Source of the DNA: an uncultured Verrucomicrobiota bacterium
GTDB taxonomy: Bacteria; Verrucomicrobiota; Kiritimatiellia; JAAZAB01
Length of the DNA stretch: 64,000 nt
Direction: 5' to 3'
Assembly (NCBI GenBank): GCA_964650945.1
Contig: CAZYXU010000001.1
Span: forward strand, 32,474-96,473
The position numbers and the translations under genes were made by a program. Below the pieces are notes generated by a model that saw only the letters and a list, made by a program, of their open reading frames with translations, ran no database searches and was not told where the DNA came from. Positions 1,945-47,787 of the stretch are shown here, in pieces (positions within the stretch are counted from its first letter, which is position 1; each line of letters opens with the position of its first letter).

Positions 1945-4917
1945 TCACGAGCAGCCCATGGAATTGCCGCAGACGTAGCAGCGGTAGCAGGCGCCGTTGC
2001 GGACGGTGATGGCGCCGCATTGGTCGCAGACCGGGGCGTCCTCCTGGAAATGCAGGAACTGCCCGTCCAGGCGCCCCTGGGCATCCCCCGCCGCCGGTTC
2101 GGCCTGGGCGGCGGCCGGCGCGGCGGCGGCGGGTGCGGCGGCCGCCGGTTCGGCGGCGGGCGCGGGATGCTGCGCGGCCTTGGAATGGCCATCGGGGAAA
2201 GTCAAAGCCATCCAGCGGAAGATGTAATCCACGAGCGACTTGGCGAAGGGAATCTCCGGATTTTTGGTGAAACCGCTCGGTTCGAAACGGCTGTGGGTGA
2301 ATTTGTCAATCAGCGTGCTGATTGGCACGCCGTATTGCAGGCACATCGAAATGGCCGTGCCAAAGGCGTCCATAATGCCGCCCACCGTGCTGCCTTCCTT
2401 GGCCATGGTGATGAAGAGCTCGCCCGGCGCGCCGTCTTCATACAGCCCGACGGTCAGGTAACCCTGATGGCCGGCAACTTCGAATTTATGGGTGATGGAC
2501 TGGCGCGTTGCCGGCATCCGGCGCCGGAAAGGCTTGTTGGCCGGGCCCTTGGCGGCGGCCTCGTCAGTCGTTCCGCCCGCGCTTTCCCGGTTGGTGCTGA
2601 CCGGCTGGATACCCTTGGACCCGTCGCGGTAAATGGCCACGGCTTTCAACCCCAGTTTCCAGCCGTCCATGTAAGCCTGCAGCACATCCTCGACGGTGGC
2701 GTTGTTGGGCATGTTGATGGTTTTGCTGATGGCGCCGGAGAGGAAGGGCTGGGCCGCCGCCATCATCTGCAGGTGCGCGTGGTAGTTGATGCAGCGCTTG
2801 CCGTTCTTGGGCTTGAACGCGCAGTCGAACACCGGCAGGTGCGCCTCCTCCAGTTCCGGCGCGTCTTCAATCGTGTCGGTCTTGTCCACATGCGCGATAA
2901 TGGCCCGGATTTGCGCCGGGGTGTAGCCCAGGCGCTTGAGCGCGATCGGCAGCGACTGGTTGACGATTTTGAACATGCCGCCGCCGGCCAGTTGTTTGTA
3001 TTTCACCAGGGCGATGTCCGGCTCAACGCCGGTGGTATCGCAGTCCATCATGAAGCCGATGGTGCCGGTGGGCGCGAGGACGGTGACCTGGGCGTTGCGG
3101 AAGCCCTGGGCGAGCCCGGCTTCGCGGACATGCTCCCATACCGTCTGCGCTTCCCGCAGGATCACGCCGTTGCTGGCGGTGGCCGCGATGTGCGCCAGGG
3201 CGTCATGATGCTTGCCGATCACCTTGTTGAACGGTTCGCGGTTGAGCGGATACTCGTCAAAAGCACCCTTGACGCCGGCCAATTCGATGGAAGTGGCGTA
3301 CGCGGCCCCGGTCATCAGGGCGGTTACGGCGCCGGCGAAGGCCCGGCCGTCATTGCTGTCATACGGCAGCCCCAGGTTCATGATCAGCGCGCCCAGGTTG
3401 GCGTATCCCAGGCCCAGCGGACGGAAGCGATGGGAATTCTCCGCGATTTCGCGGGTCGGATAGCTGCCGTGGTCCACCAGGATTTCCTGGGCAATGACCA
3501 TGATGCGCGCTACGTGCTGGAACTGCCGGACGTCGAACACCTGGCGCTCGTCGGAAAATTTCATCAGATTGATCGAAGCCAGGTTGCAGGCGCTGTTGTC
3601 CACGAACATGTATTCCGAACACGGGTTGCTCGCGTTGATCGGCCCGCTTTTCGGACAGGTATGCCAACGGTTGATCGTGGTGTCGTATTGGAGCCCCGGG
3701 TCGCCGCAGAAATGCGCCGCCTCGGCGATGTTCCGCATCACCTGCCGCGCGTCCAGCACTTCCACAATCTCGCCCGTGGTGATCGCGCGGGTGTGCCAGA
3801 CCGTGCCGGCCTGCACGGCGTTGAGGAAGTCATCCGTCACGCGCACCGAAAGATTGGCGTTCTGAAACATGACCGATGAGTAAGCGTCGCCGTTGAAGGA
3901 GCCGTCATAGCCGGACTTGATCAGCACGCGCGCCTTTTTCTCTTCGTTGACCTTGCAATTGATGAAATCCAGGATGTCGGGATGTTGCACCTTGAGGCTT
4001 TGCATCTTCGCCGCGCGCCGGGTTTTGCCGCCCGACTTGATCACCGCCGCCACCTGGTCGAACACCCGCATGAAACTCAGCGGGCCGGAGGGCGTGCCGC
4101 CGCCGGAAAGCTTTTCGCGGCTGCTGCGCAGCGTGCTTAAATCCGTGCCGGTGCCCGACCCGTATTTGAACAGCATGGCCTCCGAACTCGCCAGGCGCAT
4201 GATGTCCTCCATGTTGTCGTTCACCGACTGGATGAAGCAGGCGGAAGCCTGGGGGTGCTTGTAGGAGTCCGCGGCCTTTTCAATCCGGCCGGCCTTGGCG
4301 TCCCAGTAATAGGCGGAGCGATTGTTGGAGGTCACGCCATACGCCTGTTGCAGTCCCACGTTGAACCAGACCGGGCTGTTGAAGGCGGCGTATTGGTTGA
4401 CGCAAAGATGCGTGAGTTCCTTGTAAAACACTTCGGCATCGGCCGGCGTCGCAAAGTAACCGTCATCGCGCCCCCAATCGGCGATGGTGCGCGCCACGCG
4501 GTGCACCAACTGGCGCACGGATTTTTCGCGCACGGCCGCGCCATGCGCGCCGTAAAAATATTTCGACGCCACCACGTTGGTCGCCAGCATGGACCAACTC
4601 TTCGGCACCTCAATATCGTCGGCTTCAAAAACCACTTCGCCCTTGTCGCTTTTGATGACTGCTTTGCGCTGTTCCCATTCGATCGCATCGAAGGGATGCC
4701 GGTCGGGGGTGGTGAATAATGGCTTGATCTGGATGCCCATGGCCTTGACCTTGCGTCCGTTGTTGCCGCCTTTGCGTGAATTGCGGGCGCGCACGCCCTC
4801 CGCCGATTCCGTCGTTTCAGTTTTTAATGCCCGGTTAACGCTGTCGTTTGCAGTATTATTCGCGGTGTTATCGCCCAAAGCCAGGCCGAGGCCGGCTGGT
4901 TCGCGGATTTCCAACAT
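1945..4917 (-). CDS. nrdJ: Class II (adenosylcobalamin-dependent) ribonucleoside-diphosphate reductase
   Basis: 990-aa ORF. The body from MGIQIKPLFTTPDRHPFDAIEWEQRKAVI...VVASKYF onwards is canonical NrdJ, with the Cys-rich C-terminal tail CDQCG...CYRCYVCGNSMGCS. An AGGAGA RBS sits 7 nt upstream of the ATG at 4917. An alternative internal start at comp. 4740 would drop a 59-aa low-complexity N-terminal extension. Confidence 0.9.
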   Translation of the reverse strand: MLEIREPAGLGLALGDNTANNTANDSVNRALKTETTESAEGVRARNSRKGGNNGRKVKAMGIQIKPLFTTPDRHPFDAIEWEQRKAVIKSDKGEVVFEADDIEVPKSWSMLATNVVASKYFYGAHGAAVREKSVRQLVHRVARTIADWGRDDGYFATPADAEVFYKELTHLCVNQYAAFNSPVWFNVGLQQAYGVTSNNRSAYYWDAKAGRIEKAADSYKHPQASACFIQSVNDNMEDIMRLASSEAMLFKYGSGTGTDLSTLRSSREKLSGGGTPSGPLSFMRVFDQVAAVIKSGGKTRRAAKMQSLKVQHPDILDFINCKVNEEKKARVLIKSGYDGSFNGDAYSSVMFQNANLSVRVTDDFLNAVQAGTVWHTRAITTGEIVEVLDARQVMRNIAEAAHFCGDPGLQYDTTINRWHTCPKSGPINASNPCSEYMFVDNSACNLASINLMKFSDERQVFDVRQFQHVARIMVIAQEILVDHGSYPTREIAENSHRFRPLGLGYANLGALIMNLGLPYDSNDGRAFAGAVTALMTGAAYATSIELAGVKGAFDEYPLNREPFNKVIGKHHDALAHIAATASNGVILREAQTVWEHVREAGLAQGFRNAQVTVLAPTGTIGFMMDCDTTGVEPDIALVKYKQLAGGGMFKIVNQSLPIALKRLGYTPAQIRAIIAHVDKTDTIEDAPELEEAHLPVFDCAFKPKNGKRCINYHAHLQMMAAAQPFLSGAISKTINMPNNATVEDVLQAYMDGWKLGLKAVAIYRDGSKGIQPVSTNRESAGGTTDEAAAKGPANKPFRRRMPATRQSITHKFEVAGHQGYLTVGLYEDGAPGELFITMAKEGSTVGGIMDAFGTAISMCLQYGVPISTLIDKFTHSRFEPSGFTKNPEIPFAKSLVDYIFRWMALTFPDGHSKAAQHPAPAAEPAAAAPAAAAPAAAQAEPAAGDAQGRLDGQFLHFQEDAPVCDQCGAITVRNGACYRCYVCGNSMGCS

Positions 4918-4977
4918 GGGGAGGTCTCCTAACTACAATTCATTAAGCAAATTACAACGATTGGTGGGCATTGCCTG

Positions 4978-5034
4978 CCACAATATTTGCCACCTTTTTT
5001 AAAAACAAGTCACTTTTAACACTACCTGTAGTGG
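4978..5034. promoter_or_regulatory. Two candidate NrdR-box-like operators upstream of nrdJ (CCACAATATTTGCCACC at 4978-4994; ACACTACCTGTAGTGG at 5019-5034)
   Basis: The second site matches the published 16-nt NrdR consensus acaCwAtATaTwGtgt at about 12/16 positions with palindromic flanks ACACTA...TAGTG. The first contains a CACAATAT half-site. Both lie 60-120 nt upstream of the nrdJ start in an AT-rich intergenic region. Confidence 0.3.
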
Positions 5035-5260
5035 ATGCCAAGAAAAAAATTTTAGCAAAAATATGAATGCCTAATTTTGCTTGGAAAACTGCGTTTTTTT
5101 TATTTTTTTTATTGAAAGAGTTGCTTCCAAAAGTCAAATATTGAAAGCGGTAGTCAGTATCCAGCGGTAAGTAGTCAGGATCGCAAAAGACACAAGACAT
5201 TTATAACAAACATCTTGTATTTATTCTGGATTCTGACTTGAATTCTGAATTCTTTCCATT

Positions 5261-5436
5261 AGCATCCCCCAGGATGCTCAGGCTGTAGGCTGAAGGCTGT
5301 AGGCTATAGGAAAACCGCGGATTTCAAGCATCGGATCGGAAAACACAGTTCCGTTTTTTTTGCCGATGTTTTTCGGGGTTTTAACCTACAGCCTACAGTC
5401 TAATAACCTTCAGCCTTGGCGTCCCTTATGGGACGC
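5261..5436. repeat. Composite inverted-repeat element: hairpin AGCATCC-CCCA-GGATGCT (5261-5278); left arm GGCTGTAGGCTGAAGGCTGTAGGCTATAGG (5281-5310); 73-nt core; right arm AACCTACAGCCTACAGTCTAATAACCTTCAGCC (5384-5416); hairpin GGCGTCCC-TTAT-GGGACGCC (5417-5436)
   Basis: Read directly: 5297-5310 pairs with 5385-5398 (14 bp, 1 mismatch) and 5288-5296 with 5408-5416 (9 bp), nested correctly. Two short perfect hairpins flank the arms symmetrically. The region is about 40% GC in a 65% GC genome. Confidence 0.5.
5329..5368 (+). terminator. Intrinsic-terminator-like hairpin (CGGAA-AACACAG-TTCCG followed by T8) nested inside an outer CATCGG/CCGATG pairing
   Basis: On the + strand the 5-bp stem and 7-nt loop are immediately followed by TTTTTTTT (5354-5361). 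The outer complementary hexamers 5329-5334 and 5363-5368 enclose the hairpin and T-tract. It lies inside the IR element core, about 330 nt upstream of the + strand gene at 5690. Confidence 0.4.
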
Positions 5437-5689
5437 CAGTGAAATTGGCTCAAAAAAATATTTTGCCGTGTTCATCGGGCGGATACGCGGCCGGCGTGAT
5501 CACGGCTGCGTCATACTCGGAAAAGACGGCTCGGCAGGGACGCCTCGCCCCACCATTTTGGCCATATCATCCTTGGTGGGGCGAACCGTCCCTGGTGAGC
5601 CGCAAGAATGACGCAGCCGTGCCGGCCTGATGCGGAGCGAAAATACCTGATTGCATTGTCGGGGATGGATTGATAACATCATCCGCATT

Positions 5690-6262
5690 ATGAAAAAACA
5701 TGCTGTAGTTTTTTTCGCGGCGTTTTTTAAACGCTGCTGGCCGCTGGGCCTGGCGGCGTTATGCCTGGTCTCCGCGCCCCGCGCGCAAGCCGAGCATTTG
5801 CTCGACCTGGGCGCGCGCTATCATGCCGCGCATCACCAGTTTGACAAACTGCCGTTCGGCAATGGCGATATCTCTTATCTGCTGGCCTATTCCTACGCCG
5901 AATCGCTGGCGCTCTGGCAATTGGGTGTGGATTTCGCGCCGGATGTTTCCGGTGAAATGGCGCTGGCGGGCGATCGGGTTGTCGGCGATATCGATTATGC
6001 CGTTACGCCGCAATTGAATTTGATCATCAAGGATAATTACTTCCGCGGCGGGGCGGGGGTGCGCACCAGCTATGTGGAAGCCGAAGATGACAGCGAGTGG
6101 CTCGATCCCTATTGGCAGTTTCTGCTGGGCCTGAATTTTCCGCTGATGGGCCGGTTTTCCCTGGATGCGTCCACAAGTTACGTCTTCGAACACCTGGAAA
6201 AACTGGATGGCTTCGATTTCCGCGATCTGGAATACCAACTGACCTTGAATGTGAAATTCTGA
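5690..6262 (+). CDS. Hypothetical secreted protein, probably a small outer-membrane beta-barrel (signal peptide; C-terminal Phe)
   Basis: N-terminus MKKHAVVFFAAFFKRCWPLGLAALCLVSAPRAQA is signal-peptide-like. Alternating hydrophobic residues and the terminal ...LTLNVKF are OMP-like. It is the first gene of the + strand glycosyltransferase cluster. Confidence 0.5.
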   Translation: MKKHAVVFFAAFFKRCWPLGLAALCLVSAPRAQAEHLLDLGARYHAAHHQFDKLPFGNGDISYLLAYSYAESLALWQLGVDFAPDVSGEMALAGDRVVGDIDYAVTPQLNLIIKDNYFRGGAGVRTSYVEAEDDSEWLDPYWQFLLGLNFPLMGRFSLDASTSYVFEHLEKLDGFDFRDLEYQLTLNVKF

Positions 6263-6336: not shown

Positions 6337-6873
6337 TTGCTTATGTCCAACGCATCCCCATCCGCAGCGAGCGCGCCGCCGGCCGGCCCGGCGGAGGCCG
6401 GTTTCGAGCTGGACATCGGCGCGGATGGCGTGGATGCGGAGCGGATCATGGCGGAAGTGCGCGCGGCGGTGGCGCGCAAGACGGAGGCCGGGGTTTATCG
6501 CGACTTGCGGATCGCCCAGGCCGAGCGCCATAACCTGCAAAACCTGCGGGATGACGAAAAATTTTTGCAGTTTTACCTGGAATGCCTGCATGAGGCCGCT
6601 TGCGTCGACATCAATGATTTTGAAATCCGCGAACGGCGGCGGCTGGGCGCCGGCCTGCTGGTGGCGTTGAAGCGGGCCGTCTGGCAGTTGTTGAAGTTCT
6701 ACACTTACCGGCTCTGGTCGCAGCAAAACCAGGTCAACGGCCTGCTGGTGACGGCGCTGGAAAGCCTGGATGAAAAATACCGGGTGCGCCTGGCGGCGCT
6801 GGAACAAAAAGTCGCCGCGCGGCCGCAAGCTGCGCAGGAAGGAACGCAGGTATGTCCACCGCCCGGCGCATAG
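6337..6873 (+). CDS. Hypothetical protein (no recognisable family), overlaps the start of the downstream GT4 gene
   Basis: 178-aa ORF, co-directional with the next gene and overlapping it by 22 nt (6852-6873); no motif recognised. Confidence 0.4.
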   Translation: MLMSNASPSAASAPPAGPAEAGFELDIGADGVDAERIMAEVRAAVARKTEAGVYRDLRIAQAERHNLQNLRDDEKFLQFYLECLHEAACVDINDFEIRERRRLGAGLLVALKRAVWQLLKFYTYRLWSQQNQVNGLLVTALESLDEKYRVRLAALEQKVAARPQAAQEGTQVCPPPGA

Positions 6874-21615: not shown

Positions 21616-21830
21616 ATTCAGATCTGATGTCATTTTGATCAAATGTGCCCATGAGCGGCGCGGCCTGTCCGGGCCCGTTGTATGCGCTTGTTCGTTTGGT
21701 TTTTTCTTACAAAGCCACGAAGGAAGGTCTATAACTCCCCATCAGTCGTTCGGGTTAGTTTTCACCCATCTTGGTGTCTTTGTGGCTTTGTGAGAGAAAA
21801 TATCCATTGTTCGCTCTTCACTTCGCCTCG

Positions 21831-32255: not shown

Positions 32256-32474
32256 ATGGCAAGTACACTCCAGATTGAGAGCATGTCACGCGCGGAAAAA
32301 CTCCAGGCAATGGAGGCCATTTGGTCCGATTTATCCAAAGATGAAGCCAACGTGGAGTCTCCTCCATGGCACGCTGACGTTCTCAGGGAAACCAATGCCA
32401 GGGTTGCCGCAGGTCAGGAGCGCATAGCAGACTGGGAAACGGCCAAGCTGGAACTCCGGAAACGGTTTGAATGA
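32256..32474 (+). CDS. Addiction-module antitoxin (putative addiction module component family, 72 aa)
   Basis: MSRAEKLQAMEAIWSDLSKDE...PPWHADVL...AAGQERIADWE pattern of the TIGR02574-type antitoxins that partner RelE/ParE toxins. Confidence 0.75.
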   Translation: MASTLQIESMSRAEKLQAMEAIWSDLSKDEANVESPPWHADVLRETNARVAAGQERIADWETAKLELRKRFE

Positions 32475-46778: not shown

Positions 46779-47621
46779 TCATTTGGCCAGAAATTGGCCG
46801 GCAGTCTCGCCGGCCACCTGGCGGAAAACGCGCATGAAATACGCCGGATCGGCGTACCCGACCTGCGTGGCGGCATCCTTGATGGGGACGCCATGGGCGA
46901 GCAATGACTTGGCGCGCGCGATGCGTTGCGCCGCAATGAAGGCCACGGGCGCGCGGCCGGTATAACTTTCAAATAAACGCCGGAAATGCGGAATGCTCAA
47001 ATGCGCCAGTTGGGCGAGTTCCGCCACCGGCAGCCGCGTTTCCAGCCGCCGGCCAATGTAATCCACCACCGCCGCCAGCGCCGCCTCGTGCGCGTGCCCC
47101 CGCAGTTGGCGCCGCCGGCGGAGTTCCGCCAGCATTTTTAACAGAATGATCTTGCGTTCCATGGCGGCGGTCAGGTCTTCGCCATCCATGCAGCGCGCCA
47201 GCGCGAAGAAAGCCTCGCGGACGGCGGCCGCGGCATGCTGGAAAACCGGCGCGCGGGTGTCCAGCAACTGTAAATCCATCAGGAGCTGGGCTTCCGGACC
47301 GCTCCACACGATCCAACGCGTAAACCACGCGGCGCCGGGCGCGTAAGCGGCCGGCTCGGCGGGCGTCAGGAAAATCACATCGCCCGTCCGCAATACGCCC
47401 TGGCCGCGATTCTGCATGACATACCGCCCCGCGCCTTCTTCCACCGCCACCGCGGCGTATTGCCCTAAAATCCGCAAATGCCTCAACTCGCGCGGAGCGT
47501 TGCCCCCCGCGCCAATCCGGTCCACCCATAGTCCCAGCCGCTGTTCGAAAGGGCTGGGCTGGCGGAACCGGGTTTCACGCCAGACCGGCAGTGCGGCAAT
47601 ATCGGTGATTGATTTATCCAT
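46779..47621 (-). CDS. AraC-family transcriptional regulator (cupin-like N-terminus + HTH_18)
   Basis: C-terminal AELAQLAHLSIPHFRRLFESYTGRAPVAFIAAQRIARAKSLL dual-HTH. Divergently oriented to the gene at 47788. Confidence 0.8.
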   Translation of the reverse strand: MDKSITDIAALPVWRETRFRQPSPFEQRLGLWVDRIGAGGNAPRELRHLRILGQYAAVAVEEGAGRYVMQNRGQGVLRTGDVIFLTPAEPAAYAPGAAWFTRWIVWSGPEAQLLMDLQLLDTRAPVFQHAAAAVREAFFALARCMDGEDLTAAMERKIILLKMLAELRRRRQLRGHAHEAALAAVVDYIGRRLETRLPVAELAQLAHLSIPHFRRLFESYTGRAPVAFIAAQRIARAKSLLAHGVPIKDAATQVGYADPAYFMRVFRQVAGETAGQFLAK

Positions 47622-47787
47622 AAAATTGATTTTTCCGTCAATTGATTTTGTCAGGCAATACAATAGAATCAGACGATAAAAAAACAAGCGCTAAATTTTT
47701 AATATGATTGTTTTGTTCGAAAACGTGAAAGATCCTGCCGGCGGTTTTGCCGGTTGAACCGTAAATACCAGTGGAAGGAGTCGTCCG

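Follow-up and report, generated by a model that had tools for sequence, protein, structure and literature searches.

A Probable Miniature Inverted-Repeat Transposable Element with Heptamer-Repeat Arms in the nrdJ Spacer of an Uncultured Kiritimatiellia Bacterium

Introduction

The stretch of DNA considered here (64,000 nucleotides, hereafter the window; positions 32,474 to 96,473 of contig CAZYXU010000001.1, assembly GCA_964650945.1) comes from an uncultured Verrucomicrobiota bacterium of the Kiritimatiellia, and it raises the question of whether the highly structured DNA between nrdJ and a divergent gene for a 190-aa signal-peptide protein is a regulatory device or mobile DNA. An earlier note, made from the letters alone, had described nested inverted repeats, hairpins and a T8 run in this long AT-rich spacer, and had offered three readings: a + strand small RNA, an attenuator or riboswitch-like leader, and a mobile element of MITE (miniature inverted-repeat transposable element) or REP type. 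We conclude, with a probability of roughly 0.9, that positions 5257-5441 are a MITE copy, which was inserted along with other DNA specific to the lineage between the divergent control regions of the two genes. This reading draws on dispersed copies, terminal inverted repeats, target-site duplications, filled and empty sites, the lack of coding capacity, and a fold into one long hairpin.

Bacterial MITEs are defined as small elements without a transposase gene, with terminal inverted repeats and a target duplication, present in many intergenic copies and able to form a long stable stem-loop; they are generally shorter than 200 bp but may reach about 400 bp (Delihas 2011, PMC3184786). The window element conforms to this description in its size, its lack of a transposase gene, its terminal inverted repeats, its dispersed copies, and an empty site in relatives. 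The duplication, however, is found at the level of the family and not around the window copy.

Results

Filled and empty sites in relatives

Orthologous loci were obtained by a homologue search with the 190-aa protein, followed by exact look-ups. Three relatives, here L125, L126 (GCA_964463985.1) and L128, encode this protein at 97%, 77% and 70% identity, respectively, and share the gene order pgpA, nrdJ, the divergent 190-aa gene, glycosyltransferases and a kinase. Their spacers between nrdJ and the 190-aa gene measure 307, 214 and 214 nt, compared with 772 nt in the window. Identity between L125 and the window is 98.4% as far as 5117 and 97.4% beyond 5621, but L125 has 39 nt where the window has 5118-5620 (503 nt). 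Read side by side, these 39 nt correspond to window 5452-5500. The spacer of the window thus holds two insertions, one at 5118-5451 with the MITE in it and one at 5501-5621. Both sit between conserved gene-proximal blocks (4918-5117 and 5632-5689). Because the insertions lie between conserved blocks and are absent from relatives, a conserved leader or attenuator, or the "regulatory hub" that the earlier note had envisaged for the wider region is excluded.

The reciprocal case is found in L126, where 6563-6768, between pgpA and nrdJ, is occupied by a sibling element whose terminal repeats are the same and whose interior differs, with a target-site duplication matching at 8/9 positions (AAAGCCACT/AAAGCAACT); the window is empty at the corresponding position (1880-1960). 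The MITE family has been mobile within this lineage. Comparison of filled sites with empty ones in closely related genomes was also the basis for inferring mobility of the cyanobacterial element Nezha (PMC3184786).

A dispersed family of copies

Scanning a metagenome collection with the core 21-mer GGATCGGAAAACACAGTTCCG recovered 28 copies on 27 contigs, of which 19 come from a single metagenome, 7 come from a second one, and 1 is an ENA contig. The flanks differ in every metagenome contig carrying a copy, and blastn matches between the 27 contigs and the window are confined to 5257-5441 (within 3 nt), at 78-98% identity. All copies share a unit with sharp ends that starts with CATTRGCATCCC and finishes with GGGACGCCAGTG, the copies standing in register. 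The ends are formed by terminal inverted repeats of about 21 bp (5'-CATTRGCATCCCAYAGGATGC ... GGCGTCCCTRTGGGACGCCAGTG-3'), each containing a small hairpin, and they are mutually inverted, CATTGGCATCCCATAGG facing CACTGGCGTCCCACAGG on the other strand, a feature conserved in all copies. In an alignment of the 16 complete copies, lengths range from 162 to 213 bp (185 bp in the window), and the terminal repeats are complementary at 14/17 positions in the subfamily-B consensus and at 11/17 in the window copy.

Perfect 9-bp target-site duplications surround 6 of these 16 copies (L133b, L135, L142, L149, L155 and L158), and two further complete copies have duplications matching at 7/9 positions. They lie in otherwise unrelated flanks, as in CTTGAATGT, AAACGGAAA, ATGTTCATT and AAACAAATA, and the chance of a perfect 9-bp match is 4^-9 per copy. 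A plausible mechanism is that a transposase supplied in trans would recognize the element ends and insert the element through a staggered 9-bp cut, leaving the 9-bp duplication. The 5'-CA...TG-3' termini and the length of the duplication would fit DDE transposase families such as IS4.

The left arm consists of 2-9 heptamer units among family copies, and such arms may gain or lose units by slippage after insertion. The cores define two subfamilies, represented by ...GCCGATGTTTTTCGGGG... and ...CATTAAGCCCTTTTGGGTGC..., the window copy belonging to subfamily A. No coding-like open reading frame (ORF) spans a copy among the copies examined; the ORF caller was crude and miscalled the window's own neighbor, and we used only this absence of copies inside coding-like ORFs, not any orientation bias. 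Within the window, the single ORF touching the element (5360-5611) crosses two insertions that are absent from relatives. The element has no coding capacity and no transposase gene.

Several observations weigh against this interpretation. Retrieval depended on the core 21-mer, and the conservation of that stem-loop is thus partly an ascertainment effect. The window copy has no recognizable target-site duplication (AATTCTTTC versus AAATTGGCT, 3/9), and it is the only copy within the 64-kb window. The empty site of L125 lacks not only the 185 bp but the larger block 5118-5451, which implies a composite insertion history at this locus. An autonomous element with matching ends was not found, the terminal repeats occurring only on MITE copies among the retrieved loci, and a search of viral contigs, plasmids and phages for the element gave no match.

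Folding and the possibility of a regulatory RNA

All the features listed in the earlier note are present, within a few bases of where it had placed them. The RNA of 5255-5440 is predicted to fold into one long hairpin between two small ones, with energies of -96.1 kcal/mol on the + strand and -88.2 kcal/mol on the - strand (z = -10.8 and -9.2, respectively), and the DNA of 5257-5441 folds comparably (z = -9.9). Each of these folds was matched by 0 of 200 shuffles, and the structure thus exceeds the shuffled controls that the note had proposed as a yardstick. The nested long inverted repeat it had described was recovered at 5286-5306/5382-5402 (21 nt, 86%), with overlapping registers as well. 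The left arm is AGGCTGT x4.4 at 5280-5310 (period 7, 87% matches; Tandem Repeats Finder, TRF). For AGGCTGTAGGCT, with at most 2 mismatches allowed, the window has 8 occurrences against 2.1 expected, 6 of which fall in the element region; 0 of 100 shuffles reached this count of 8. The short hairpins at 5261-5278 and 5417-5438 both appear in the minimum-energy fold; they had been taken for brackets around the repeat, but they belong to the element's own terminal inverted repeats. The mobile-element reading was right in kind, although its 136-nt unit fell short of the 185 nt of 5257-5441.

End-to-end folding, with the terminal repeats paired, is also predicted for a subfamily-B copy (-89.3 kcal/mol, z = -8.5). 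When the alignment is placed on the structure derived from the window copy, pairing holds in 88% of cells, and at 3 pairs both partners have changed; one of these three involves the variable seventh base of a heptamer, where 6 copies have U-A and 6 have A-U. In an alignment of related copies, such modest covariation fits a maintained palindrome and is by itself no proof of RNA function.

A stable fold of this kind could also be expected of a cis-regulatory RNA, whether or not the element is mobile: either a small RNA read from the + strand and terminated at the T8 run, or an attenuator in the leader of the 190-aa gene and the glycosyltransferase cluster. In addition to the fold itself, the hairpin and T8 lie on the + strand, in the orientation of the downstream genes, and some bacterial MITEs do carry promoters or terminators (PMC3184786, PMC4596501). 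We nevertheless consider this reading highly improbable. The element is absent from the orthologous leader of three relatives that have the same downstream operon, one of them 98% identical and two more distant, and it stands upstream of the conserved gene-proximal block 5632-5689; other copies occur beside unrelated genes, in both orientations. The single terminator-like site in 4800-5800, at 5337-5361, has a 5-bp stem with 3 GC pairs and a 7-nt loop, and one such site against 1.7 expected in shuffles is not above chance. The core hairpin and T8 are thus present as the earlier note had described, but they are weak, and the T-run is variable: within the family consensus TTCCGGTTTTTTT, it is T7-T8 in subfamily A and TTTTCAT in subfamily B. 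Whatever role it may have as a terminator is not shared by the whole family. A scan of 4800-5800 for sigma-70-like promoters gave no sites. The Rfam scan that the note had recommended found only two tRNAs at gathering score in the whole window and, at E<=10 in 4800-5800, only chance miRNA-type hairpin matches.

The more specific regulatory candidates were rejected on the same evidence. An intrinsic terminator would have no + strand gene upstream of it (nrdJ being on the - strand), in addition to its short stem and unconserved T-run. A riboswitch or attenuator leader would have to be missing at three orthologous loci and to lack an Rfam match. The resemblance to ops/JUMPstart that had been suggested for the direct repeats upstream comes down to AGCGGTAG at 5146-5153, a 7/8 match to the ops core, GGCGGTAG, of transcribed polysaccharide-operon leaders, within an insert that L125, L126 and L128 lack. 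A single copy without conservation in relatives had been named in the earlier note as grounds for doubt; what we find is a sequence that is unconserved at this locus yet multicopy elsewhere, which is the signature of a MITE. The coordinates of the element and of its surroundings are collected in Table 1.

Table 1. Features of the spacer between nrdJ and the 190-aa gene, in window coordinates.
Feature	Position	Strand	Basis
Ancestral nrdJ-proximal part of the spacer	4918-5117		98.4% identity with L125 up to 5117
Palindrome H, left portion, small, AT-rich, GAGTTGCTTCCAAAAG-TCAA-ATATTGAAAG	5118-5147		absent from L125
Further lineage-specific insert: AGCGGTAGTCAG-type repeats, small hairpin, ATTCTGA x4.7	5148-5256		absent from L125, L126, L128
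Probable MITE, complete copy, subfamily A, 185 bp	5257-5441	+	blastn of 27 metagenome contigs; 16-copy alignment
Left terminal inverted repeat CATTAGCATCCCCCAGGATGC, with its own 7-bp hairpin (5261-5278)	5257-5277	+	first bases conserved in all copies
Left subterminal arm, AGGCTGN heptamers x4.4	5280-5310	+	TRF
Core/loop, inner helices AAAACCGCGG/CGGGGTTTT and CATCGG/CCGATG	5311-5381	+	minimum-energy fold
Weak terminator-like hairpin CGGAA-AACACAG-TTCCG + T8	5337-5361	+	consensus scan
Right subterminal arm, complementary NCAGCCT heptamers, interrupted by TCTAATAA	5382-5416	+	repeat finder, fold
Right terminal inverted repeat GGCGTCCCTTATGGGACGCCAGTG, inner 8-9-bp hairpin	5418-5441	+	last bases conserved in all copies
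Palindrome H, other end, AAATTGGCTC	5442-5451		abuts the MITE right end directly
Target-site duplication of second element, left CCGGCGTGAT, right CCGGCCTGAT	5491-5500; 5622-5631		direct repeat D11; CCGGC[G/C]TGAT
Second, unrelated MITE-like element, 121 bp, termini CACGGCTGCGTCAT...ATGACGCAGCCGTG	5501-5621		inverted repeats I1, I3
Ancestral block directly upstream of the 190-aa gene	5632-5689		kept in L125, L126, L128

Heptamer arrays in other genomes and viral contigs

The heptamer arms raise the alternative that the structure arose in place, as convergent arrays of heptameric simple-sequence repeats (SSRs) produced by slippage and template switching, and never transposed. Such arrays are indeed widespread. 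A scan for (AGGCTGN)x3.7 in one genome per species gave at least 120 loci, and the matches listed include Verrucomicrobiota, Planctomycetota, Acidobacteriota, Gemmatimonadota, Proteobacteria, Bacteroidota, Cyanobacteria and others, with arrays of 4-17 units (L005-L124); viral contigs contributed 65 loci (L159-L223). Among the matches listed, a complementary array lies nearby and hairpins are formed at 26 of 120 genome loci, where neither target-site duplications nor terminal repeats are visible outside the arrays. Heptamers in general are common: composition-matched control heptamers occur at 15 and 29 viral-contig loci compared with 65 for AGGCTGN, ATTCTGN occurs at 99, and period 7 dominates the tandem arrays in the heptamer loci, with many different sequences. 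Convergent heptamer pairs have, moreover, been described in Xanthomonas (PMC4692102). Yet the 28 copies, at different loci, are conserved at 78-98% identity in their non-repeat core and terminal hairpins, which slippage in place cannot yield, and perfect 9-bp duplications surround six copies. The arrays account for the arms and not for the dispersal, and we regard an origin in place as even less probable than a regulatory RNA; the idea survives only as an account of how the arms arose.

A cross-phylum mobile element defined by AGGCTGN arrays was likewise considered and rejected, the cores and flanks of these loci being unrelated to the MITE and to each other. Since control heptamers are also common, the wide distribution reflects a general excess of heptameric SSRs and not a shared mobile element. 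Such a general excess is attributed to Mrazek et al. 2007, as that work is cited in PMC4679880 and PMC4692102.

The paired arrays have a consistent polarity. At the 26 paired loci among the matches listed, the AGGCTGN array is always the 5' arm at short range, and a TRF-based census of the retrieved genome and viral loci places the purine-rich array as the 5' arm in 66 versus 3 AGGCTGN-like pairs, and in 20 versus 7 pairs of other heptamers. Genes of the PF05635 family (23S rRNA intervening-sequence protein, a four-helix-bundle) were observed at 4 of the 120 loci among the matches listed and are enclosed by arrays in two of these: at L038:2374-2811 (- strand), with inverted AGGCTGN arrays at 2264-2298 and 2798-2867, and at L008:783-1031, with inverted AGGCTGN arrays at 740-767 and 1158-1185. 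This association is real but rare. The 5'-arm polarity and the enclosure of PF05635 genes could reflect a dedicated process by which polar heptamer palindromes are made or put to use, for instance as multimeric binding sites for a transposase or a single-strand-binding protein, and the heptamer arms would then be more than slippage debris. We think this unlikely; if it were true, the MITE would show that such modules can be mobilized.

Two other repeats of the window may be recorded here. An intergenic inverted repeat at 21700-21800 has 23-nt arms that are 87% complementary and 55 nt apart, its right arm consisting of CTTTGTGG tandem units, and an AT-rich 17-nt tandem repeat, ATTGATTTTTCCATAAA x2.5, lies at 47608-47649.

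The least probable reading is that of a REP/BIME palindrome spread by a REP-associated tyrosine transposase (RAYT), or an IS200/IS605-type hairpin end, which the palindromic, intergenic sequence, its hairpin ends and the GTAG within its heptamers (the tetranucleotide typical of REP heads) might suggest, but which is at odds with a 185-bp unit with distinct terminal inverted repeats and 9-bp duplications, REP and IS200/IS605-type elements making no duplications and being much shorter (REP are GC-rich palindromes of about 20-40 nt).

DNA inserted beside the element

The MITE is not the only DNA that the relatives lack. The outer ends of the left insert (5118-5147 and 5442-5451) resemble the two parts of a small AT-rich palindrome, H, whose right-hand motif, AAATTGGCTC, also follows the MITE in L146, as a one-base variant in L151, and as its complement in L154. 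In at least six loci, namely the window, L126 (6528-6562), L146 (895-926), L145 (3186-3216), L132 and L154, an H-like palindrome (GAGCCAATTTCAAAAC-N4-GTTTTGAAAGCAACTC-like) lies directly against a MITE copy or is interrupted by one; in L126, the sibling MITE sits with its duplication inside such a palindrome. Palindrome H may be a preferred insertion target or a piece that travels with the element. A repeat finder recovered the TATTGAAAG pair at 5110/5139, and the AGCGGTAG-type direct repeats are likewise present, both as previously reported. The remainder of the left insert, 5148-5256, has no other copies among all retrieved sequences, and the fold of 5118-5256 is not significantly structured (z = -1.2). 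The tandem ATTCTG motifs noted there correspond to ATTCTGA x4.7 at 5223-5253 (TRF). This array fits the MTYCTGA consensus of Geobacter metallireducens, in which palindromic sites of five such heptamers have been reported (PMC2700814).

To the right, 5501-5621 folds along its whole length into a single hairpin (-81.7 kcal/mol, z = -10.4). It lies within a 10-bp duplication with one mismatch, of which L125 has a single copy; L125 has the exact empty site for this element, with an uninterrupted GGCCGGCCTGATGCGG. It is probably a member of a second MITE family. Its terminal 14-mer CACGGCTGCGTCAT (5501-5514, 5608-5621) also occurs alone, in an intergenic position at L126:990-1003 and on metagenome contig L142:2636-2649. 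Exact look-up of the 190-aa protein returned nothing beyond four short Logan contigs. They belong to the same strain (99.8-99.9% identity), and each of them ends inside the second element, as assemblies often do at repeats or palindromes.

With the arrival of the MITE, the flanking insert 5118-5256 and the second, 121-bp element, the spacer of this strain has grown from about 300 to 772 nt. The MITE insertion would appear to be selectively near-neutral at this locus, since both conserved gene-proximal blocks are intact.

Gene context

On one side of the spacer lies nrdJ (- strand, 1945-4917, 990 aa), and on the other the gene for the 190-aa signal-peptide protein (+ strand, 5690-6262), which has no Pfam match. 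The latter is followed by an ORF of 176-178 aa (6337-6873, also without a Pfam match), two GT4 glycosyltransferases and a Ser/Thr kinase. The earlier description of a long AT-rich intergenic region is accurate, the GC content of the spacer being 33-48% compared with about 62% across the window. An exact-protein look-up of the nrdJ product returned no record, and a homologue search found that the neighboring protein has a 56%-identical homologue labelled Kiritimatiellia/Lentisphaerota, on which basis the host is probably a PVC-group bacterium.

The ancestral parts of the spacer contain conserved sequence of their own. The nrdJ-proximal part (4918-5117) has blocks that are invariant in 4/4 genomes, CCACAATATTTGCC and AACACTACCTGTAGTGG among them. 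Two palindromic boxes upstream of nrdJ, CCACAATATTTGCCAC and ACACTACCTGTAGTGG (4978-4993 and 5019-5034), are kept in 3/3 relatives with centers 41 bp apart, and they resemble NrdR boxes. The opposite block is conserved in L125, L126 and L128 in the pattern AAAATACCTG.TTGCATT...TGATAA.ATC...GCATTATG. Its conserved portion at 5640-5689 stops about 10 nt short of the ATG at 5690, ahead of which a Shine-Dalgarno sequence is not evident, and the leader of the 190-aa gene may be very short or absent. The annotation of this gene in L126 is 18 codons longer.

Discussion

The architecture of the element is that of several known bacterial MITEs, including Correia/NEMIS in Neisseria, ERIC/IRU in enterobacteria, Nezha and Chunjie in cyanobacteria, and RUP in Streptococcus pneumoniae, as judged from their descriptions (PMC3184786); similarity at the sequence level would not be expected. 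The present element is unlike these in its 9-bp duplication, in terminal repeats that are themselves small hairpins, and in subterminal arms made of tandem heptamers. The duplication of Correia elements is TA. SPRITE of S. pneumoniae offers a further parallel as a small dispersed repeat whose core resembles an intrinsic terminator (PMC3184786), but in the present family the terminator-like part is weak, with its 5-bp stem, is part of a larger hairpin, and has lost its T-run in one subfamily.

Tandem repeats within such elements have been described for BrickBuilt of Porphyromonas gingivalis, which is always intergenic, has small inverted-repeat ends, and holds in its interior a tandem repeat whose copy number varies (Klein et al. 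2015, PMC4596501). There, the repeat is a central 23-nt minisatellite in direct orientation, whereas here the units are 7 nt long and lie in two subterminal arrays, inverted relative to each other, that pair. Conversely, 7-nt tandem units in intergenic regions, variable in number and often arranged as convergent inverted pairs that could form stem-loops, characterize the cyanobacterial STRRs and, in Xanthomonas, arrays of GGGAATC (Rehm et al. 2015, PMC4692102), and tandem intergenic heptamers are also represented by TAACTGA in the Beggiatoaceae (PMC4679880) and MTYCTGA x5 in G. metallireducens (PMC2700814). These arrays stand in place without terminal repeats, duplications or a conserved core; in the family described here, by contrast, the arrays lie inside a transposable unit. 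The likeness to heptameric SSRs or STRRs holds for the arms only, not for the whole element.

For annotation, this study removes a false lead, in that the structure upstream of the polysaccharide or outer-membrane gene cluster is very probably mobile DNA of recent insertion and no conserved riboswitch, small RNA or ops-type control site. If the element is transcribed, its very stable RNA hairpin could terminate or insulate transcription or serve as a substrate of RNase III, as in other bacterial MITEs. Elements of this kind break assemblies, as the four Logan contigs ending in the neighboring element illustrate, and they can serve as strain markers. For a poorly studied lineage, a MITE family and a probable second one are now documented. 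The travel of heptameric SSRs within a transposable unit, in arms of 2-9 units, connects two kinds of repeat that tend to be treated apart.

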